Below, piece by piece: positions 1 through 17,303 of a DNA stretch of 20,000 bases. The DNA comes from an uncultured virus (IMG/VR IMGVR_UViG_3300042484_003076) (lineage: Duplodnaviria > Heunggongvirae > Uroviricota > Caudoviricetes): IMG/VR virus record IMGVR_UViG_3300042484_003076. One strand, given 5' to 3'. Position 1 is the first letter of the stretch. Each line of letters starts with the position of its first letter. Below the pieces are notes generated by a model. The model was not told the origin of the DNA, did no database searches, and worked only from the letters and a program-made list of their open reading frames with translations. Made by a program: the position numbers and the translations under genes.

Positions 1-8
1 GACCTATA

Positions 9-29
9 GGTTTTGTCAATAGCAAAACC
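9..29 (-). promoter_or_regulatory. Putative leftward promoter (-35 TTGACA) inside an inverted repeat; -10 would fall just outside the window
   Basis: Plus-strand TGTCAA at 14-19; GGTTTTG (9-15) / CAAAACC (23-29) inverted repeat. Confidence 0.4.
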
Positions 30-48
30 AAACTATTTTTATAGACAC

Positions 49-77
49 AAAAAAAAGCCGTCGCGAGTGCAACGACT
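49..77 (-). terminator. Intrinsic terminator downstream of cas6
   Basis: Minus strand GTCGTTGC-ACTC-GCGACGGC (8-bp stem with G:U) followed by T8. Confidence 0.75.
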
Positions 78-136
78 GGGGGATGCGAAGTAGTCACTCT
101 ATTTTAAGCGATCGCTCCGCCGAGTGATTTTGTTAT

Positions 137-718
137 TTATTCAAAAAACCCGCATCCTAGATGTTTGCGACCTCCCAACCCTTTCTCTTGTAATATTAAA
201 GACTCGTTAGAGCGCAAATCTGAAAACATTACAGGGTATACAGCACACGGTTGCTTTTTAATAATTAGCTGCTCCTTGCGCCCTATTGTTGGCAGTGTAT
301 TAATATCAAACTTTGCTAGTTGCTTACCTAGCGACACCGCAAACCTAGTAAGATCGGGTTCACGATTGTTGTCGGTTTTAATTGATACCCAAGCCGCTAG
401 ATTCTCTTGAGATTTTAGCTCTGTGCCATTAACCAGCTTGAGTTTAATCAACTCTTTGCCTAAATGGATTTGACAATCAAAAAGCATCGTTAGCTCTGTA
501 ATTAAATCTTTGGAGCAACGTAGCTTTATGGTGTTTTGAGTTAAACGTAATGTGCGATCGTCAAAAATATTTGTGTTACTGATTCTACCGATCGCCCACT
601 CAGGGTTATCTTTGAGCTTAGGAGCTAATCCCGTCAAGGCAGAATAGAGACAGTAATGGTAGTTTCTAGGGATTAAAGAGCCTTCAATACTGAAAAGAAA
701 TTCTACGAAGTTACTCAC
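137..718 (-). CDS. cas6: Cas6 endoribonuclease, I-MYXAN/Cmx6-like
   Basis: C-terminal Gly-rich loop LQEKGLGGRKHLGCGFF and N-terminal F.I.G..IP.NYHY.LYSA pattern typical of Cmx6-type Cas6; GTG start with upstream AAGGA. Confidence 0.85.
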   Translation of the reverse strand: MSNFVEFLFSIEGSLIPRNYHYCLYSALTGLAPKLKDNPEWAIGRISNTNIFDDRTLRLTQNTIKLRCSKDLITELTMLFDCQIHLGKELIKLKLVNGTELKSQENLAAWVSIKTDNNREPDLTRFAVSLGKQLAKFDINTLPTIGRKEQLIIKKQPCAVYPVMFSDLRSNESLILQEKGLGGRKHLGCGFFE

Positions 719-760
719 GTTCTTTTATTCCTTTGGTATTTGTGTATTTCTTCAATTCCG

Positions 761-808
761 CATGACTTTCTTAGATCGTTCTTAGATCGTTCTTAGGGAT
801 ATCTCATG
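761..808. repeat. Short tandem 11-bp repeat array upstream of cas6
   Basis: TTCTTAGATCG at 768-778 and 779-789, degenerate TTCTTAGGGAT at 790-800, bracketed by CATGA (761) and TCATG (804-808). Confidence 0.7.
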
Positions 809-819
809 TATCGGCGCAC

Positions 820-849
820 AAAAAAGCCGTTGCCACTGTGACGGTTTTT
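820..849. terminator. Probable bidirectional terminator, sequence-related to the 49-77 hairpin
   Basis: AAAAAA-GCCGTTGC-CACT-GTGACGGT-TTTT; T-tracts available on both strands. Confidence 0.6.
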
Positions 850-868
850 GATAATGGTAAAATAATAG

Positions 869-1014
869 ACTAGCCGAAGAATTTAAGCGTAACGATTAAA
901 TACTAAATAAGCGTCGCCTACCTTTGTTGGAGAGAAGCAGACAGGCGATCGCGAAGTGTGTTGTAAAGAAAAGCTTCTCCGCTTTATTTTAGCACTGCCA
1001 AAAGGATAGCTAGC
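869..1014 (-). ncRNA. Candidate structured RNA or inserted element of unknown family
   Basis: Nested helices 1008-1014/869-875, 980-996/899-913, 939-948/914-923, plus 973-979/932-938. Non-Watson-Crick positions are G:U on the minus strand but A:C on the plus strand. Confidence 0.45.
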
Positions 1015-1074
1015 ATCTTTAAGGACTAATGCTTCAAAACCGTTAGGGGCGGCGCAAAGGTAGCAGTTATTCAT
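1015..1074 (-). pseudogene. csf1: 5' fragment of a csf1 (Cas8-like) gene; the ORF runs on to 883 through apparently unrelated sequence
   Basis: MNNCYLC...LVLKD resembles the CxxC N-terminus of Csf1 (from recall). Start overlaps the cupin stop, and csf1 is the one core type IV gene otherwise missing. Confidence 0.5.
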
Positions 1075-1426
1075 TGATAATCACCAATCTTTTCTCACTA
1101 TCTACGGGTTGATGTTTGTTGGCAACGGATAGCAAAAAAAGCCCGTCATTTCCAGCCCTTACCCTGTGAGGTTGCGAACCGTCTATAAAGTAGCAGGTTC
1201 CCTTGACGATTGGTTCGGTTTCAGCGCCGCAATCAATCCATCCAGACCCCTCTACTCCAAACAAAATATGATCACCCTCATGGGTATGAAGAGAAGTTTT
1301 TTCATTAGGTGCAAAATTCAACATATCAGCAGCAAAGCCGTCTTTTTTTACCAGTGGCAATCCGACAGCTTGACTGCCATACATCTGATACCAGTAATCA
1401 GCATCTAAATAATTTTTAATTTGCAT
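1067..1426 (-). CDS. Cupin-domain protein
   Basis: Cupin motifs H-T-H-x4-H...VEGSG and G.CYFIDGSQPHRV; overlaps both neighbouring genes. Confidence 0.85.
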   Translation of the reverse strand: MQIKNYLDADYWYQMYGSQAVGLPLVKKDGFAADMLNFAPNEKTSLHTHEGDHILFGVEGSGWIDCGAETEPIVKGTCYFIDGSQPHRVRAGNDGLFLLSVANKHQPVDSEKRLVIINE

Positions 1427-2084
1427 ACAATAATCCTTTTAGGTATTCAAAATATTCTGGCGAAATCTTGCGAAACTCTTCTAATCTTGTAGCTTGATAT
1501 TGATTGTTAGTATTTTTGCTGACATGATCTGTAGTTCGTTTTGCGCCTAAATCATAGGCTTTTAGGTATGGCAATTCATGAAAAAAGGTATAAGCCCAAA
1601 TATCGTTTTCACTCCAATTAAAAACAGGGCAAGCGCGATAATCTCCTTTTTTATATTGATAGATAGCACCATTTTTTAGCAAGGTTGCTTTACGTTTTGC
1701 GCTTTCTTCTATCCGCAATCCAACAAAAGCGACAGGATAATCAATCCATAATTTTTGTGACTTAACTTTGTTAGGGACATGATCGCCTTGCATCAAAATA
1801 GTTTGAATGTTTAGCCCAAATTTGTCCTGATATTTTGATTCTGTTTCAGCATAATTACTAATCATTTCTCTTTCATAATGTCCAAAAGAAATAGCCAAAA
1901 TATTAGGACAAATCGACTGCACCAAATGAAGCATTACGACTGAATCTTTACCCCATGACACCGCAACATAAGAAGGAGCGATCGCTAAAGCCTCTCGAAT
2001 AATCTCTTTAGCTTTCTCAACTTTGCGCTTAAATGTTGGCAGTGTCGCATGAGCTAAAAATGCATCGCGTTCTATTCCCTCCAT
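1416..2084 (-). CDS. cysH: CysH-like / PAPS reductase family protein (type IV-B accessory)
   Basis: PP-loop SWGKDS, VGLRIEES and PVFNWSENDIWAY motifs; directly after csf3. Confidence 0.88.
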   Translation of the reverse strand: MEGIERDAFLAHATLPTFKRKVEKAKEIIREALAIAPSYVAVSWGKDSVVMLHLVQSICPNILAISFGHYEREMISNYAETESKYQDKFGLNIQTILMQGDHVPNKVKSQKLWIDYPVAFVGLRIEESAKRKATLLKNGAIYQYKKGDYRACPVFNWSENDIWAYTFFHELPYLKAYDLGAKRTTDHVSKNTNNQYQATRLEEFRKISPEYFEYLKGLLYAN

Positions 2085-2758
2085 ACGTTATCCGTTGGCA
2101 TATAGCACATAGATTTATTCGCCGCTAACCATGTAGGAGGTCTCCACCCCCAGTTCATCATATTGATAGATTGAGGCTGTGGAATCATATTAATTGGCAT
2201 TGGTCGGGCTAAACTTTCACCTCTCCACAAATGCCAATCATGTTCAAAAGGAAGTACTTCCCATTTGTGTACCTGTCCGCAACCTTGCGATCGCTTCTTG
2301 CCAAGGTTCGTAACATTTAGAATTAGTTCGCTAATCTTGTCAGCATTGCCAATCGCAAACCAGTGTATAGTCTGCATTTCGCGATCATATCGTGGTAAAT
2401 CATAGGCTTTAAAATGCCCTTGCGAACTATCAACCTTAGCTTTCTTTTTACCCCAATCAAGGTGTAGTTCTTGCTTGTCCCATCGCTTACGGTAACGCTG
2501 AGTTTGTTGATGATTTTCGATGTAATGTGGTGAACTCACGGCCCAATACCACTCGCCTTTAAGCGTCTTCCGAGCGATCGGCATTTCATCAAAAATCAAG
2601 GGCAGATTCTTTTCAGCATCCGCAGCCGTTGGATTAGGCGTGATTAGCCCTAATTGGTCTAACAATTGATACTCAATCAGAGCATCGAAGCTAGGGGACC
2701 AGTCATCATAGGCAACTAGCGGCGTTGCCATGTGTGCGATTATTTGGAGGTTATCCAT
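2072..2758 (-). CDS. csf3: Type IV CRISPR-associated Csf3 (Cas5 group)
   Basis: G.FKAY.LP, WFAIG, LGKKRSQGCGQV..WEV Gly loop, RPMP and GWRPP.W motifs. Confidence 0.88.
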   Translation of the reverse strand: MDNLQIIAHMATPLVAYDDWSPSFDALIEYQLLDQLGLITPNPTAADAEKNLPLIFDEMPIARKTLKGEWYWAVSSPHYIENHQQTQRYRKRWDKQELHLDWGKKKAKVDSSQGHFKAYDLPRYDREMQTIHWFAIGNADKISELILNVTNLGKKRSQGCGQVHKWEVLPFEHDWHLWRGESLARPMPINMIPQPQSINMMNWGWRPPTWLAANKSMCYMPTDNVWRE

Positions 2759-3962
2759 TCAATAAACTCCGAATATCGCTCTTAGAATCAGCTAGAAAGC
2801 CTTTGTAATCTTCGAGATATTCTTTATACCTTGCGTGAGATTCAGTAGCGCGATCGCTTAATTTCTGAGCATGAGGTGTAATCGTCATAAACTCACCGCG
2901 ATCGCCCTCCGCAGTCTCAAACCAGAATTGCATAGAACATAGTCCGCAACCCGTTCCTGATTGACCGCCTAAGTATGGCGATTCAGCGAACTTGAGTAAT
3001 GCATCTGCAATAAATCCTTCTTCGATTCTGGTGACGTTTGCGCTCCAATAAGAGTACAAAGTAGCACCTGTTTGGAGTAGCCAATTACCCATAATCATCT
3101 GTTGGCTTTTCTCTTTTTCGGGCTTTGCTTTTTCGCTTTTACCTTTCTTGGTTTCAGGCTCCGAAACTATACCAAATAGATCGCATTGAGAAATCATCTT
3201 TTGAGGTTCTGGAGTAGCGCCGATCAAATGTTTTGCAAAGTTAGGATCGTGAAGTGAATCGCGCCTTGTCTTTTGGCTATAGGTAAGCCAATCGGAATAA
3301 TATCGAAGCTTCTCACCTAAGAATGGCATCCATTCATCAAGCAAAGCCTTGAGATCGTAATTGCTAACATCCAAAGGAGAACCATGATGTAGCCATTGAT
3401 TCACTCGTTGACTATGCTGTAAGTCTTTGCCATCAATAATCTGCTCCAGTGCTGGTATGACTTCGATTGGCAACGCAGGGGGGAACATCTGATAAAGATA
3501 CTTAGCGCTTTCTACACAAGCCAAATAAGCATCACCAACAGCGATTCGACCGTGCACCATTTGAGCATCGGATACACCAAACAATCCTTTAGGTTTGGCA
3601 GTTCCTAACACTGAAAGGCATGGCAAAAGTTGCCTAATCTTCTTATCCAAATCTAAGTCATTACCCGTGCCACCATCAATCGCGCCGCCACAAAATAGAG
3701 CGTGATGCATCGTTGGCGATACTTGCACACCAATCTGAGAGAGGAAAGAATCAATACCACAGCGCCTCAAAATACGATTGCGTAGTGAGTTACCAGAAAG
3801 ACAAAACACCTCAGAGGGATTTCCCTCTAAATCTGTCACTTTCATCGTTCGTAAATTGGTTTGATTGCCTACGGACTCACTGATATGAGACAAGGGCTGT
3901 AGCAATGTAATTTGCAGGTGTAGCTTGATATTATGGCGATCGTGTGGGTTGTAATTAAGCAT
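2751..3962 (-). CDS. csf2: Type IV CRISPR-associated Csf2 (Cas7 backbone)
   Basis: PLSH, SGNSLR..LRR, LFCGG, LP.LSVLG, GRIAVG, TRRD, QMI and C-terminal LGGQSGTGCG Gly loop. Confidence 0.9.
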   Translation of the reverse strand: MLNYNPHDRHNIKLHLQITLLQPLSHISESVGNQTNLRTMKVTDLEGNPSEVFCLSGNSLRNRILRRCGIDSFLSQIGVQVSPTMHHALFCGGAIDGGTGNDLDLDKKIRQLLPCLSVLGTAKPKGLFGVSDAQMVHGRIAVGDAYLACVESAKYLYQMFPPALPIEVIPALEQIIDGKDLQHSQRVNQWLHHGSPLDVSNYDLKALLDEWMPFLGEKLRYYSDWLTYSQKTRRDSLHDPNFAKHLIGATPEPQKMISQCDLFGIVSEPETKKGKSEKAKPEKEKSQQMIMGNWLLQTGATLYSYWSANVTRIEEGFIADALLKFAESPYLGGQSGTGCGLCSMQFWFETAEGDRGEFMTITPHAQKLSDRATESHARYKEYLEDYKGFLADSKSDIRSLLNG

Positions 3963-4485
3963 TATTAGCCTCTACATCTAGAGTATTTTCTGTTTCTTCT
4001 GGAATATTCAAAGCGCGATCGCTTTCAAAGCGAACACGACAAAAAGCAGTAATAATGTGCGGTTTTGATTTGCACAAACTGAGGATATGGTGATCGCTTA
4101 TCCCGTGCGTATATTTCAATTTGGCTAAAATGTCGTTCCATCCCAACCACCAAAGATCAATATTTTGATCGCAGTCTTTCTGTTGAATGTCTCCCATACT
4201 GCCATCGTCATTCACAGTAGCCCGTAAAACCACTTGTTTTGGCGCGATTATGCGAGTCCATTCTTTTGGGTTGAGGTGTGCAACGATTAGCTTTTTTGCC
4301 AGATTCTCAATGTAGTCGTCGATATTGCGAGAGGGAATAGCAGCATTTTGGATACTGCTTTGAAAATATTCCCATGTTTTTAAGCCCATGGCAGGACTTT
4401 TGCCCTTGTCTCTACAGCGAAAAACCCAATAACTAAGCGCACTGGCTAATGCTGTAGTCTTGTCCTCAGTTTCTATTCCATACAT
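3955..4485 (-). CDS. Probable type IV-B small subunit (Cas11-like)
   Basis: 176 aa helical-looking protein (W.YF..SI.NAA...IDDYIE.L.KKL) coupled to csf2, in the position cas11 occupies in IV-B loci. Confidence 0.6.
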   Translation of the reverse strand: MYGIETEDKTTALASALSYWVFRCRDKGKSPAMGLKTWEYFQSSIQNAAIPSRNIDDYIENLAKKLIVAHLNPKEWTRIIAPKQVVLRATVNDDGSMGDIQQKDCDQNIDLWWLGWNDILAKLKYTHGISDHHILSLCKSKPHIITAFCRVRFESDRALNIPEETENTLDVEANNA

Positions 4486-4513
4486 AAATATTTCTCGTAC
4501 ATCTACGGTATTT

Positions 4514-4810
4514 TTATTCTAGATCACAAACAGCATTCCAAGCCGCCAACTTAGCTTTACCGACAGACACACCACGCGCCCGCATCTCCTTTGGTGTTGC
4601 CTTACGTAGCTTAGGGATAGCGCGGTAATTACCCTCAACACACTCAATATGCAATCGCCTGTTACCGTATGCGATCGCGCCTTGTTTAAGAAGTAAGCGC
4701 AATGCGCTCGTATTGATTTGCGTACAGATTTCAATGTAGCGTAGAGAGTAAGAGCCGCGATGGGTGCTGAAAAAGCCGATGAGCTTGGCTCGTTCAATTT
4801 CTAGAGGCAT
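4514..4810 (-). CDS. Small basic hypothetical protein, possibly DNA-binding
   Basis: Start overlaps the stop of the kinase gene; Arg/Lys rich. Confidence 0.65.
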   Translation of the reverse strand: MPLEIERAKLIGFFSTHRGSYSLRYIEICTQINTSALRLLLKQGAIAYGNRRLHIECVEGNYRAIPKLRKATPKEMRARGVSVGKAKLAAWNAVCDLE

Positions 4811-5553
4811 TATAGTTCCTCCAAATAATCTTCAACAAATTTCATCCGATCGCCCAAATCCAAACAGTCCCTATGCAACTCTTTATAAGGTAAATTTAGA
4901 TGATTGAGCATCCCTAAAAGCTGAGTATGCAACTTGAATATTAACGGTTGATTAATCGCCGCTTTGTACTCACGCTCGACAAAAGGGATTGCAGGAGGAA
5001 TTAGTACAATCTTGTCAAAATACCGAGCCGTAACATTAAAGCAATTTTGCAAATAGTCCATAACCTCAGACTGCATACGCTCATCTAACTTGCCATTGCC
5101 AATGTCTGCGAGCAAGTAAGCAGCCATGTCCAATGGTGTGCGATCGCAGATAAAACTAGGTTCGTCAACTTCAAACCAGATGTCTTCAGCTTTAGCCAAA
5201 ATCTTTTGCTGCAAAAACAACCTAGTGCGGATATCCAATTTGTCGGACGGGTGGAAACTATGCTCCAGAAAAACACTGCTCGCATCAATAGGGATATATG
5301 GAATCCCTAGCTTTTGCGATAAGGCGATTGCCAGTGTGGTTTTGCCCGTGCCATGTGCACCGCAAAGTCCTATTCCTATACAGGACTTTGCGGTGCGATA
5401 ATCTGGATAAACAACCAATCTATCGTCTGGGATAAGCATTGCATAGCTAACCCTTCCACCAAACATAGCTTTCGCTTCGTCTTCAGTGTCAAATCCGCCA
5501 TAAGCAATGCAGTTTGAGCCTCGGTCTTCAAACATCGCGTACCATTTTTTCAT
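4810..5553 (-). CDS. P-loop NTPase / nucleotide-kinase-like (AAA_28-type) with a ~55 aa N-terminal extension
   Basis: Walker A GAHGTGKT and kinase-like ICDRTPLD motif; start placed at ATG 5553 after GGTGAAG. Confidence 0.75.
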   Translation of the reverse strand: MKKWYAMFEDRGSNCIAYGGFDTEDEAKAMFGGRVSYAMLIPDDRLVVYPDYRTAKSCIGIGLCGAHGTGKTTLAIALSQKLGIPYIPIDASSVFLEHSFHPSDKLDIRTRLFLQQKILAKAEDIWFEVDEPSFICDRTPLDMAAYLLADIGNGKLDERMQSEVMDYLQNCFNVTARYFDKIVLIPPAIPFVEREYKAAINQPLIFKLHTQLLGMLNHLNLPYKELHRDCLDLGDRMKFVEDYLEEL

Positions 5554-8600: not shown

Positions 8601-8643
8601 GCATGACAGCGGCGATCGCGAATTGGATTAATTAATAACCCAC

Positions 8644-8688
8644 AGCAAAAAGAGAGAGCGATCGCAATGATCGCTCTCTCTTTTTGCT
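8644..8688. terminator. Bidirectional terminator
   Basis: Perfect 20-bp inverted repeat AGCAAAAAGAGAGAGCGATC with a 5-nt loop, between convergent genes. Confidence 0.85.
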
Positions 8689-8744
8689 TACTTATAAGGC
8701 TTAGGCTTGGGCTTACTACCTTTGGGCTTAGGTTTCATTTTCAT
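8688..8744 (-). CDS. 18 aa Lys/Pro micropeptide MKMKPKPKGSKPKPKPYK
   Basis: KP repeat uses varied synonymous codons; stop abuts the terminator. Confidence 0.45.
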   Translation of the reverse strand: MKMKPKPKGSKPKPKPYK

Positions 8745-9502: not shown

Positions 9503-10099
9503 TTAAGCATAAATTAAACCTTGCACATCCCGATATTTAAGAACATGCTGCCAAGCGCCGATCTGAATCCATTCGATAGAAGTATTTTTGAATAGCTGTG
9601 GAGACTCATCACATTGCTTGCATGGAGTCGTAGGATTGACGGTGCATTTAAGATATTGCGAATCCGCAAAGTAAGGACATTGTTTATAAACTTCAATACC
9701 CTCACTTAGGAAGTAATTCTCTAAAGCCTTGTAAAATAAAGGATGCAAACAACCTTGAAATGAGCCGCCATATATCCGCAAAGCTATCCCTAGATTATTT
9801 GCGGCGACAGTGTAACCGATTAGGTTGAAGCAAACATTAAAGCCAGTTCCCATCTCTTTGATTGTAAATCCCTTGCAAACAACTGGTAAGTTCTTGGGGT
9901 AAAAAGTTAAGTTGTCAAGAAACATCTGATTTCTAGGGAATATATCACGACAGATTATTTCAAGGTCAAAACCTAAATTCTGCATCTTTTGGCAAATATG
10001 TTTAGAGTTTGATTTACTCTCTAACACCAATTGATGCGTGGCTTCTAGCTTTTTATCAGTGCAGTGAAAGCGATCGCCTAACCAATATATTTCGATCAT
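9503..10099 (-). CDS. Hypothetical protein with C-terminal Cys cluster (DUF6464-like)
   Basis: CPYF..S.YLKC.VNP..PC..C; start reassigned to the ATGA overlap at 10099. Confidence 0.65.
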   Translation of the reverse strand: MIEIYWLGDRFHCTDKKLEATHQLVLESKSNSKHICQKMQNLGFDLEIICRDIFPRNQMFLDNLTFYPKNLPVVCKGFTIKEMGTGFNVCFNLIGYTVAANNLGIALRIYGGSFQGCLHPLFYKALENYFLSEGIEVYKQCPYFADSQYLKCTVNPTTPCKQCDESPQLFKNTSIEWIQIGAWQHVLKYRDVQGLIYA

Positions 10100-10311
10100 T
10101 TTGCTAACCTCTGGAAATAGTGGCAAGTGTATCTGTTACCAGTCTTAATCACAACGTTACCGCCTTTCTTGCGGCATAGCCTAGAAGCCTCTTGATTGCT
10201 TCTAGCTGTGATTTTACCAAGGTCAGAGAAGCCATTGCCAACGGTGCGGTTAACTTGTGCGATCGCAGGGGTGGAAATAGAAAGCAATGCGAGGATTAGT
10301 AGATATTTCAT
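10096..10311 (-). CDS. Small secreted protein
   Basis: Signal peptide MKYLLILALLSISTPAIA; two Cys. Confidence 0.7.
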   Translation of the reverse strand: MKYLLILALLSISTPAIAQVNRTVGNGFSDLGKITARSNQEASRLCRKKGGNVVIKTGNRYTCHYFQRLAK

Positions 10312-10347
10312 GGTTTAATATTTGGTAGAAATGCAGTTATTCGGGTT

Positions 10348-10379
10348 TCAGCGATTGCTTGTCATGGGGCAATCGCTGA
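10348..10379. other. Intergenic hairpin after the methylase (terminator or processing site)
   Basis: TCAGCGATTGC / GCAATCGCTGA 11-bp stem. Confidence 0.55.
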
Positions 10380-10382
10380 TTT

Positions 10383-11414
10383 TTATTGAATGATCGCTTG
10401 CAAAATCTTTTGATACATCAGGGGTGGTACTGAGTTACCGATAATTTTGCCATCTAACGACTTTTTGCCACTCCACTGATAGTTATCAGGAAACGACTGT
10501 AAACGAGCTAAGCAAGCAATGTCTAGAGCTACGATACGAGCATTTAGCAATGCATTAGCTCTGTGATAATGCCCATCTTGACCCATCGCTCGTAATGTCC
10601 AACATGGCTCATCGGCAGCGCGGGTTTGGAGTTCGCGATCGCTTCTTGCTCCTGTGTTTTCGATTAGGATTGCCTTTAATGGGTGCGCTGAATTGGTTGA
10701 TGTTAATGTAAAAGATGGCGATTTTCTATCTACTGCATAAACATTTCTACCAGCTTCAAAATTATTATATTGTTGCGATAAAAATAGATGATCACTAATC
10801 TCATCTGGCAATGCTTTCAACTGCCAATCTGCCAGCTTGCTATCAGGTAAATCATGAACACAATCCGCGATCGCCTCATACCATCCGATATGCTTTTCTT
10901 TTGGCGGTAATGATGGGATAAAGCCGTCTTTAACAGCGATTAGGATTAAGCGGCGGCGACTTTGAGGCACTCCAAAATCAGCAGCGTTAAGTACCTGCCA
11001 ATTACAGAAATATCCAAGCTTATGAAGCATCTCAACAATCAAATGGAACGATTTGGATTTGCGGTAAGCTTCCACATTTTCAAGAGTAAAATGCTTAGGC
11101 TGTAGCACTTGGATAAATTCTGCAACCTTTCGGGCGCAATCAATATCAAGCTGAGCTTCGCCTTTGTTAGCATTAGCTGTGCTGAATTGCTTACAGACTG
11201 GGCTAGCGTGAAGGATATCAGGCTTTTCAAAGCGATACGGATCGCAATCAAGGATATTGGCAACATGCATTTTGCCGTTTATATTTGCCTTGTGAACTTC
11301 AGCGATCGCAGGATCGTATTCCACTGATTCACATGGTTCTAGTCCTGCGGCGATCGCTCCTAAATCTGCACCGCCCCCGCCTGCAAACAATGCTGTAAAT
11401 GTTTTTTTACTCAT
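10383..11414 (-). CDS. dcm: Orphan DNA (cytosine-5) methyltransferase
   Basis: Motifs I LFAGGGG, IV SPVC, VI ENV, VIII PQSRRR, IX RLQSFP, X GNSV; ATGA-coupled start at 11414. Confidence 0.9.
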   Translation of the reverse strand: MSKKTFTALFAGGGGADLGAIAAGLEPCESVEYDPAIAEVHKANINGKMHVANILDCDPYRFEKPDILHASPVCKQFSTANANKGEAQLDIDCARKVAEFIQVLQPKHFTLENVEAYRKSKSFHLIVEMLHKLGYFCNWQVLNAADFGVPQSRRRLILIAVKDGFIPSLPPKEKHIGWYEAIADCVHDLPDSKLADWQLKALPDEISDHLFLSQQYNNFEAGRNVYAVDRKSPSFTLTSTNSAHPLKAILIENTGARSDRELQTRAADEPCWTLRAMGQDGHYHRANALLNARIVALDIACLARLQSFPDNYQWSGKKSLDGKIIGNSVPPLMYQKILQAIIQ

Positions 11415-13297: not shown

Positions 13298-13405
13298 TTA
13301 CCTGTGTGGATTAATGTTAATAGCGATCGCCCAAATAATAGGCGATAAGAATGCGACGCAAAGCCAGTAAAGCATTTGCTGATGGAGATAGTCGTATGGA
13401 GTCAT
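13298..13405 (-). CDS. 35 aa single-TM peptide (not in ORF track): MTPYDYLHQQMLYWLCVAFLSPIIWAIAININPHR
   Basis: ATGA overlap with the upstream ORF; GGAG RBS. Confidence 0.5.
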   Translation of the reverse strand: MTPYDYLHQQMLYWLCVAFLSPIIWAIAININPHR

Positions 13406-13557
13406 ACTTCTATCTCCGTTAGCTCATCATGTGTGACTGGTCTTTCAACCCTATTACCACAGCGGATCAAATAATCGTATCCAATTACGCTAGGGAGTGT
13501 ATCAACGATTGTGGCGATCGCGCCTTGGTAAAGGACTTGCTGCGATGGTTGGTACAT
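13402..13557 (-). CDS. 51 aa hypothetical protein (not in ORF track): MYQPSQQVLYQGAIATIV...
   Basis: TAATG coupling upstream, ATGA coupling downstream. Confidence 0.6.
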   Translation of the reverse strand: MYQPSQQVLYQGAIATIVDTLPSVIGYDYLIRCGNRVERPVTHDELTEIEV

Positions 13558-17094: not shown

Positions 17095-17256
17095 ATGGCA
17101 ACCAGAAAATCAGCACCCAAAAAAGAACTGACGGTTGAGGCAACGCCGATCATTGAGCGATACCGATCGCGCCACACTTGGGCGGAGTTCGTTGCGCTGT
17201 ATGTTCCTGCGGATGCGGATAAGTACCCGACGATGCATAGGGAGTATTTAAAATAA
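17095..17256 (+). CDS. 53 aa hypothetical protein (not in ORF track): MATRKSAPKKELTVE...
   Basis: Starts 2 nt after the previous stop and ends at the terminator. Confidence 0.6.
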   Translation: MATRKSAPKKELTVEATPIIERYRSRHTWAEFVALYVPADADKYPTMHREYLK

Positions 17257-17303
17257 AAAAAAGAACTACTTGAATTATTCAAGTAGTTCTTTTTTTTATT
17301 TTA
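17249..17303. terminator. Bidirectional terminator
   Basis: Perfect inverted repeat with 27-bp arms (A8-GAACTACTTGAA...TTCAAGTAGTTC-T8) between convergent stops. Confidence 0.85.

Follow-up and report, generated by a model that had tools for sequence, protein, structure and literature searches.

The minus strand at one end of a 20,000-nucleotide (nt) stretch of DNA from an uncultured virus of the Caudoviricetes (IMG/VR record IMGVR_UViG_3300042484_003076), which we call the window, carries genes resembling those of type IV-B CRISPR (short palindromic repeats that are clustered and regularly interspaced)-Cas systems. Between the upstream genes of this cassette and its cas6 gene lies an element of 146 nt (positions 1014-869) that a sequence-only reading had singled out as a structured RNA-like element starting exactly where csf1 breaks off. 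That observation was borne out in part: the helices and the breakpoint are real, but as a structure the whole element is not exceptional. We think it probable (roughly 0.6) that the element is the orphan middle of a mosaic-junction scar of approximately 355 nt (window ~1065-710) that is carried passively in the operon transcript. Four lines of evidence bear on this: the identity of a csf1 stub at one edge of the element, a series of presence, absence, and deletion among related phages, a patchwork of homologies to other gene ends, and a missing fold, family, and copy-number signal for the element itself. Coordinates of the features are collected in Table 1; related viral loci are denoted by L and virus records by G.

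A truncated csf1 at the boundary of the element

By tblastn, the full-length Csf1 of a related phage (L018:3219-3866) matched the window only at 1074-1012 (62% over 21 aa), and we found no other convincing csf1 match in the rest of the window. The L018 protein itself matches TIGR03114 with an expectation value (E) of 3.2e-9, below the curated cutoff. At the DNA level the stub shares 82% identity with the csf1 5' ends of G003 and G006 across 57 nt, and the homology to such 5' ends breaks off near 1015, adjoining the start of the element at 1014. Full Csf1 proteins of 215-225 aa are encoded in L018, in L026:2179-2856, in G002 (66297-66953), and in G003 (10004-10660).

In L065 and L067 the gene order is cas11-like, csf2, csf3, cysH, csf1, with csf1 beginning 5 nt after cysH (cysH-csf1 region, L065:2860-4255 and L067:5175-6570), suggesting that the stub in the window marks the ancestral csf1 slot. 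We did not find cas6 in the examined stretches of these two loci. In the window the rest of the cassette (csf2, csf3, cysH) is intact beside the stub, which carries a CxxC motif. As derived from coordinates, a distance of approximately 19-28 kilobases (kb) separates csf1 from cas6 and the other cassette genes in both G002 (95% complete) and G003 (100% complete, with terminal repeats), so that this lineage has a split type IV-B cassette.

The stub runs on into the element as an open reading frame (ORF) of 63 aa. We rejected this ORF as a csf1 gene (TIGR03114); only residues 1-21 of Csf1 are present and the 63-aa ORF had no match in Pfam or NCBIfam. It is also very improbable that it is a true small protein gene composed of a CxxC half zinc knuckle and a new tail. 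Its start codon does overlap the stop codon of the upstream cupin gene (ATGAATAA), as the cas6 start does in L010-type phages, and the ORF is probably translated by coupling to that stop. However, a 1-nt deletion in G001 and L052 leads to a different C-terminus and a product of 55 aa, the copy in G006 lacks the start codon and first codons, deletions shorten the ORF in L007 and L015, and the lack of a family match speaks against a protein gene as well.

Distribution of the element among related phages

We compared this site in 13 viral loci that contain a Cas6 relative. The whole element is present in three of them: L016 is identical to the window, and the copies in L006 and L008 (= G001) are 98-99% identical to it. 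Positions 774-836 are deleted in L008 and the G001-type records. L007 is missing 1001-832 and keeps only the part of the element at 1014-1002, and L015 is missing 1030-782. Deletions of 63, 170, or 249 nt in the insert are thus found among relatives with intact csf genes and cas6. Eight loci (L009-L014, L017, and L018) are entirely without the element, making ten of the 13 without it when L007 is counted as absent. In L010, L012, L013, and L014 the cupin stop codon directly overlaps the cas6 start (MPNCNFIEF...), and L009, L011, L017, and L018 have other junctions. G002 lacks window 706-1062, and its flanks are 93-95% identical to those in the window.

In total the element was found in the window and six records at 97-100% identity. 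Exact-pattern scans of the viral collection returned four contigs with the element, and a metagenome scan returned two further records, both of the G001 type and at the known locus. It was absent from the diverged csf3 loci L063-L067 and from G002 and G003. Copy-number and transposon tests were run on the relatives G001-G006, and gave one copy each in G001 and G006 and none in G002, G003, or G004. A 20-mer from the core had no match in the genome_contigs collection, an exact-match test by which diverged host copies would be missed. Searching for cyanobacterial genomes by way of Cas6 gave 63 pattern matches, none of which was a relative by tblastn.

Within 1014-869, the window and the six records differ at 1011, 1010, 949 (a deletion), 920, and 919, and contigs from RNA libraries add 941 as a sixth variable site. 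Each change that falls in a helix affects one side only. Pairing is retained by the three in the stem of the hairpin at 952-911 and by the one at 1011, while 1010 G>A in L026 breaks a pair of the closing helix. The 97-100% identity of the copies limits what can be seen of covariation, with no both-sided compensatory change available.

A second context for this sequence exists in G006 (L026). There, 239 nt corresponding to window 1046-808 recur at 98.7% identity approximately 500 nt upstream of ORF127-csf1. This copy is in a 1.2-kb region poor in ORFs, lacks the start codon of the stub, and has no cas6 adjacent to it. The region (L026:605-1789) contains one ORF of at least 40 aa (at 920-1048, 42 aa). 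A part of the region shows 73% similarity to a G003 region that is seemingly syntenic with coding sequence near window 17.6-18.2 kb, and the region may consist of decayed genes.

A patchwork of gene ends upstream of cas6

The segment that contains the element is made up of pieces resembling other genes and sites: the 5' end of csf1 (1065-1015), possibly the 5' end of a Bro-N gene (868-837), a copy of a terminator (809-843), and a 3' remnant of a cysH-like gene (770-719). When the segment was compared with our set of loci by tblastx and by blastn (word size 7), matches were limited to the 5' end of csf1, the 3' remnant of cysH, and the 21 nt resembling Bro-N. In L009 and L059, the sequence matching 719-770 is coding: it specifies the C-terminal residues (..GGIEKMHKYQRNKK*) of a cysH-like ORF of 218 aa, and this ORF overlaps the cas6 ATG. 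The terminator copy belongs to a repeat family (D3) in which 809-843 is 74% identical to 40-74, and the tail GTGCGCCGATAC is common to the region upstream of ORF127-csf1 in G002, G003, and G006. The Bro-N assignment is based on 21-nt matches with marginal statistics (L063, 95%, E 0.005; L018, 90%, E 0.058). The match falls at the start of a minus-strand ORF in L018 (4383-5339) with Bro-N (E 1e-24) and ANT domains.

Two other likenesses were set aside. A stretch of 16 nt (TGGCAGTGCTAAAA) is matched in a P-loop gene of G002 and G003 and in a different gene of G006, with flanks that are unrelated, and we took this as chance. A resemblance of a plus-strand translation to a Bro-N protein ('DRRS'), noticed by eye, was rejected as a by-product of a HIP1 site.

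Other joints also contain the 5' end of csf1; in L018, cas6-ORF104-ORF60 is flanked by a 35-nt direct repeat of this end. At this locus (L018:1964-3866) Cas6 begins with 14 residues derived from Csf1 (MTNCYLCAAPNAEK), and the full csf1 gene follows cas6-ORF104-ORF60.

The flank between the element and cas6 had been described as holding a terminator-like hairpin and, on the opposite strand, an extended -10 pointing into the element. The hairpin (856-812) is present but weak on the cas-sense strand (-6.2 kcal/mol, z +0.54, 132 of 200 shuffles as good), and it is better on the opposite strand (-13.0 kcal/mol, z -1.82, 12 of 200). As a terminator candidate on the minus strand, this site (850-818) has a stem of about 4 base pairs (bp; -6.2 kcal/mol, z +0.54). 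The extended -10 (TGGTAAAAT) can be read at 855-863, but only as a weak plus-strand promoter-like site with 9 of 12 matches. It sits in the stretch of approximately 30 nt that resembles the coding 5' end of the Bro-N/ANT gene of relatives. A promoter scan of minus strand 808-719 found no sigma-70-like promoter for cas6. The 11-nt tandem repeat at 768-798 is shorter in L007, and the deletions of L015 and the G001-type records cut into it; it may represent an operator or result merely from slippage.

Folding of the element

Three helices had been drawn on the minus strand, and all 32 of their base pairs exist, six of them G:U. This structure has an energy of -23.9 kcal/mol, or -30.8 kcal/mol when completed, compared with a minimum free energy (MFE) of -34.8 kcal/mol for the element, and its long helix is outside the MFE fold. 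Against 200 shuffled sequences per strand the whole element folded no better than the controls. On the minus strand z was -1.31, with 22 of 200 shuffles as good; on the plus strand (MFE -37.1 kcal/mol) z was -1.58, with 11 of 200. The module defined by homology (808-1046) gave z values of -0.56 and -1.12, computed with T letters (the same script gives an MFE of -36.0 for the element in place of -34.8). No Rfam family was found at the locus; of 21 cmscan matches in the whole window at E<=10, none is within 156-1800.

The sequence-only reading had also pointed to a loop, GCUUCUC, complementary to an upstream GAGAAGC. The 7-nt match exists, but it was equaled in 99 of 5,000 shuffles of the flanks, which leaves its status beyond chance unconfirmed. 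A duplex joining one flank of the hairpin to the other on the minus strand was equaled in 23 of 1,000 shuffles, but only when 3 nt of the hairpin base are borrowed. Without these 3 nt the figure was 158 of 1,000, and on the plus strand 365 of 1,000. Both tests are post hoc, on a stretch picked for showing these features.

The only part of the element that is stable beyond shuffles is the 13-bp hairpin (905-955, 51 nt; -17.1 kcal/mol, z -3.2, 2 of 200). Such stability is found at 38 distinct places in the window, many of them in genes, where a 51-nt stretch reaches -17.1 kcal/mol or lower; the hairpin ranks about 19th. Its base is one of the 33 HIP1 octamers in the window. Stronger hairpins occur at 8641-8691 (-34.9 kcal/mol per 51 nt), 5346-5396 (-32.0), 13376-13426 (-28.7), and 17251-17301 (-25.7). 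The last contains an AT-rich perfect palindrome (17256-17296) with weak chance matches in Rfam, and 8644-8744 has a sub-threshold Rfam match to MicX.

Across variants the hairpin ranges from -15.8 to -25.8 kcal/mol. The changes at 920 (GU to GC), 919 (UA to UG), and 941 (UG to CG) and the loss of the bulged A949 all retain or strengthen pairing. By hand count, about 15 of the 26 possible stem transitions would preserve pairing, so that three pairing-preserving stem changes out of three are not significant; the variation is compatible with selection on the hairpin. Read as an intrinsic terminator, the hairpin has its stem followed by UUAUUUAGUAUUU, but the terminator scan did not call it because of its 15-nt loop and broken U-tract. 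The comparison with intrinsic terminators and with intercistronic hairpins that stabilize mRNA is mixed. Like these, it has a stem of 13 bp that is rich in GC and, on the sense strand of the operon, is followed by U-rich sequence; unlike them, it has a long loop and an interrupted U-tract, is inside a probably translated ORF, and escapes the scan. At most, it may damp read-through or stabilize the upstream mRNA.

Presence of the element in RNA libraries

Contigs from RNA libraries (four runs from four studies) cover 837-1065 and are all of the G001 type. Three of them bridge the 773/837 joint into the cas6 leader, and one contig of 614 nt continues into the upstream 117-aa gene. The contigs join the element to both neighbors and show no discrete species. 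This fits co-transcription of the element with its neighbors, for contigs that give no strand, ends, or levels and in which carry-over of DNA is possible. Positions 1116-1800 (cupin and cysH) are uncovered; because the runs contain the G001-type variant, in which another gene occupies this place, the gap is uninformative about expression. Contigs X18 and X20 stop at 731 and X17 runs through, from which we draw no conclusion.

Origin of the element and alternative explanations

In tailed phages, mosaic-junction scars are novel joints at gene boundaries that arise by illegitimate or short-homology recombination. RecT-type recombinases, one of which this phage encodes, favor exchange at short homologies. 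The segment upstream of cas6 is like such scars in that it is at a gene boundary, comprises several gene-end pieces, and is present, absent, or partly deleted among near-identical genomes. It is unlike them in having a 146-nt core with no identified parent gene and in belonging to a module that was copied to a second locus. We suggest that csf1 would originally have been directly after the cysH-like gene. A cassette containing cas6 would then have taken the csf1 slot by short-homology or illegitimate recombination at the first csf1 codons, leaving behind a stub of 21 codons, 146 nt with no traceable parent gene, and fragments from the ends of other genes. The resulting segment would have no dedicated function and would be transcribed passively as a spacer between the csf2-csf3-cysH-cupin genes and cas6. 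It is this order of events, with passive transcription and absence of function, that we infer. The cas6 gene can also be compared with phage morons, which are genes inserted between two other genes with their own promoter and terminator. Like a moron, cas6 has related terminator-like sequences (D3) on either side and is inserted between operon genes relative to L065 and L067; unlike the case of a moron, no promoter-like site was found for it, and in other relatives it is translationally coupled to the preceding gene.

Several observations weigh against a scar. The 146-nt core has no traceable parent gene, so that the term remnant is unproven for the core itself. Dispensability in relatives is no proof that the element lacks a function, and cas6 too went unfound in the L065 and L067 stretches. 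The loop complement (99 of 5,000) and the flank duplex confined to the minus strand (23 of 1,000) are nominally unusual. The hairpin has a z of -3.2, all four of its changes are compatible with the structure, and the inner hairpin is strongest (-22.0 to -25.8 kcal/mol compared with -17.1) in records from which the downstream one is missing. Finally, the 239-nt module is 98.7% identical in G006, compared with 78-94% for other regions shared by the window and G006, so it has moved recently as one unit.

Many of these points would fit a cis-acting RNA, the main rival to a scar and in our view possible but unlikely. In this case the hairpin and its U-rich tail would be a partial terminator, an attenuator, or a stabilizer of 3' ends between the csf genes and cas6, and an alternative fold, in which GAGAAGC pairs with the loop and AAAUAAAGCG with CGCUUAUUU, may compete with the base of the hairpin and set the ratio of csf to cas6. 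The stability of the hairpin, its four structure-compatible changes, its greater strength where the second hairpin is missing, the loop complement, and the use by the flank duplex of 3 nt of the hairpin base on the minus strand alone are all in its favor. So is the lack of a sigma-70-like promoter on minus 808-719; cas6 would therefore depend on read-through. By contrast, the long loop, the broken U-tract, and the silence of the terminator scan argue against it, and so does the place of the hairpin within a stub ORF that is probably translated by coupling. L007, L015, and the G002-type phages manage without the hairpin, the window has 38 places as stable, and every one of the favorable signals is post hoc on a stretch chosen for it.

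A role in trans is improbable. The element had been proposed as cargo or guide of the Csf complex, and it could be imagined as its dedicated cargo, scaffold, or guide, possibly released by Cas6. Its position between the csf genes and cas6, the G006 module again being beside a type IV gene (csf1), and the presence of the region in RNA libraries fit this idea. In addition, two publications describe type IV-B complexes that bind non-CRISPR RNA (PMC7937560, PMC8175902). In the first of these, the Csf complex of Mycobacterium sp. JS623 bound heterogeneous non-CRISPR RNA. This is like the original proposal in being non-CRISPR RNA next to type IV-B genes, and unlike it in that the bound RNA is heterogeneous and not a dedicated encoded one; the element is missing in relatives with the same genes. 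Moreover, there is no conserved promoter but three different upstream junctions, the whole element folds like its shuffles, and no Rfam family or homolog outside one tight lineage was found. It is absent from near-complete relatives that have csf2, csf3, cysH, cas6, and csf1, it is variously deleted in lineages that retain csf and cas6, it is unlike the CRISPR repeat of related phages, and the RNA contigs bridge both neighbors without a discrete species. Similarly improbable is a portable regulatory or scaffold RNA in which the module of approximately 240 nt, comprising the csf1 stub, the orphan core with its hairpin, and the U-tract, travels between csf loci (upstream of cas6 in the window and of csf1 in G006), serving as a switch between the hairpin and the long-range helix or as a Csf assembly RNA when no array is present.

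Of the options first put forward, a small non-autonomous insertion comes closest, in that the segment is present in some and absent from other near-identical phages, but it is not a miniature inverted-repeat transposable element (MITE). We consider it quite improbable that it is a mobile element, whether MITE-like, cassette-like, or a portable terminator module, with csf1 5' ends as its insertion sites. The 98.7% identity of the 239-nt module in two contexts, the presence/absence polymorphism, and the recurrence of the csf1 5' end at junctions would agree with mobility, and the element resembles MITEs in being small, non-coding, and insertion-like. Unlike MITEs, it occurs in at most one copy per phage record searched, and no dispersed copies were found, with none in genome_contigs and two further metagenome records that are both in the known context. 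The ends GCTAGCT/GGCTAGT form a DNA inverted repeat at only 5 of 7 positions and vary at 1011 and 1010, there is no target duplication in the sequence, and the left ends differ in length between the two contexts. A mosaic-junction scar is our preferred explanation.

The surrounding cassette and operon

The window looks like the genome of a freshwater cyanophage. The HIP1 octamer (GCGATCGC), a sequence linked with cyanobacteria, occurs 33 times in the window compared with 0.14 expected from base composition, and the DNA runs that contain the element stretch are lake-water metagenomes. Family searches showed that the window encodes RecT, a C5 DNA methylase, a Bro-N protein, and a dCTP deaminase. 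Virus contig G001 is the nearest record to the window among those searched, and a distant blastn search of window 1-5000 against the phage collection gave no match.

On the minus strand the gene order is a 176-aa ORF, csf2, csf3, a cysH-like gene, a cupin gene, the 63-aa ORF, the element, and cas6. The 176-aa ORF is in the position of cas11 and had no match in Pfam or NCBIfam. Matches of csf2 to TIGR03115 (E 3.5e-6) and of csf3 to TIGR03116 (E 2.2e-16) are below cutoff; the cysH-like gene matches PAPS_reduct (E 7e-17) and the cupin gene Cupin_2 (E 2e-8). Together these genes (window 137-4485) form a type IV-B-like cyanophage cassette with a Cmx6-type cas6 in addition.

The slot between csf3 and cas6 (window 1067-2084; the same slot in L002, L009, and L018) is highly mosaic. 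The cysH-like alleles in it are only 25-60% identical in amino acids, whereas csf3 is approximately 95% identical among closer relatives. The gene that follows cysH varies and can be a cupin, a 117-aa ORF, a 250-aa methyltransferase-like ORF, or nothing. The 250-aa ORF is methyltransferase-like by eye and had no NCBIfam match.

Table 1. Features of the window in and around the 146-nt element
Feature	Position	Strand	Basis or remarks
csf1 5' stub, ATG and ~20 codons (MNNCYLCAAPNGFEALVLKD)	1015..1074	-	tblastn with full Csf1; 8-nt overlap with cupin stop
63-aa ORF, stub extended by foreign sequence; gene not conserved	883..1074	-	Variants and no family match
146-nt element, orphan non-coding core of unknown origin	869..1014	-	No similarity beyond near-identical copies
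13-bp hairpin with bulged A (949) and 15-nt loop	911..952	-	Built on HIP1 site GCGATCGC, then U-rich UUAUUUAGUAUUU
Possible 5'-end remnant of Bro-N/ANT antirepressor gene, contains TGGTAAAAT	837..868	+	Short matches to L063 and L018; marginal
A-tract, weak hairpin, U-tract, GTGCGCCGATAC	808..850	-	Degenerate copy of terminator downstream of cas6 (77-56)
11-nt tandem repeat CTAAGAACGAT, ~2.6 copies, just upstream of cas6	768..798	-	Read from sequence
Non-coding 3'-end remnant of cysH-like allele, now cas6 Shine-Dalgarno region	719..770	-	88% over 52 nt to L009/L059
cas6 (Cmx6 type), GTG start	137..718	-	Pfam Cas6 E 1.3e-32; TIGR02807 E 1.3e-29, above cutoff
Upstream operon	1067..4485	-	176-aa ORF (cas11 position), csf2, csf3, cysH-like, cupin

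CRISPR arrays in related phages

The idea of an RNA partner had started from an array-less Csf complex, a premise that fails for this phage group. G002 contains an intergenic array (46613-46914 = L049:6613-6914) of five copies of a 37-nt repeat, one of them degenerate, with spacers of 12, 34, 36, and 35 nt. The site of this array is empty in G003 and G006. The same 37-nt repeat occurs in arrays of four related viral contigs (L075-L078; 4-7 exact matches each), two of which also have a csf3 relative. Spacers of the G002 array had no match of at least 14 nt outside the array in any sequence searched. On one strand the repeat folds at -9.1 kcal/mol (z -2.45).

We rejected a likeness between the element and this repeat; the best alignment is the HIP1 core only, and shuffles equaled it 29 times in 500 and 294 times in 500. 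We found no repeat family inside 700-1100 and no CRISPR-like k-mer spacing in the window. Given the arrays in four related contigs, a substrate more natural than the element exists for the Cas6 of this phage group.

According to PMC8175902, type IV-B systems comprise csf2, csf3, a cas11-like gene, and a cysH-like gene, and are defined as lacking both Cas6 and a CRISPR array. This phage group departs from the 'no cas6, no array' definition because cas6 is present and related phage contigs carry arrays. Among the papers that a literature search listed, none combined cyanophage with 'type IV-B', from which we make no claim about what is in print.

Implications for phage type IV-B cassettes

As an RNA candidate the element matters little. 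Because this stretch behaves like ordinary recombination debris, it is not worth pursuing as the missing RNA partner of type IV-B complexes unless transcript data point to it. The surrounding system is the more interesting object, with its cas6, its displaced csf1, its swappable accessory slot, and the arrays of its relatives. The locus is a clear example of the remodeling of a type IV-B cassette in phages. csf1 has been displaced from the slot after cysH and a Cmx6-type cas6 is there instead, the first codons of csf1 recur at joints, and the accessory slot has been swapped among a cupin, a 117-aa ORF, a methyltransferase-like ORF, and nothing. The arrays found in some relatives bear on which RNA type IV-B-like complexes use.

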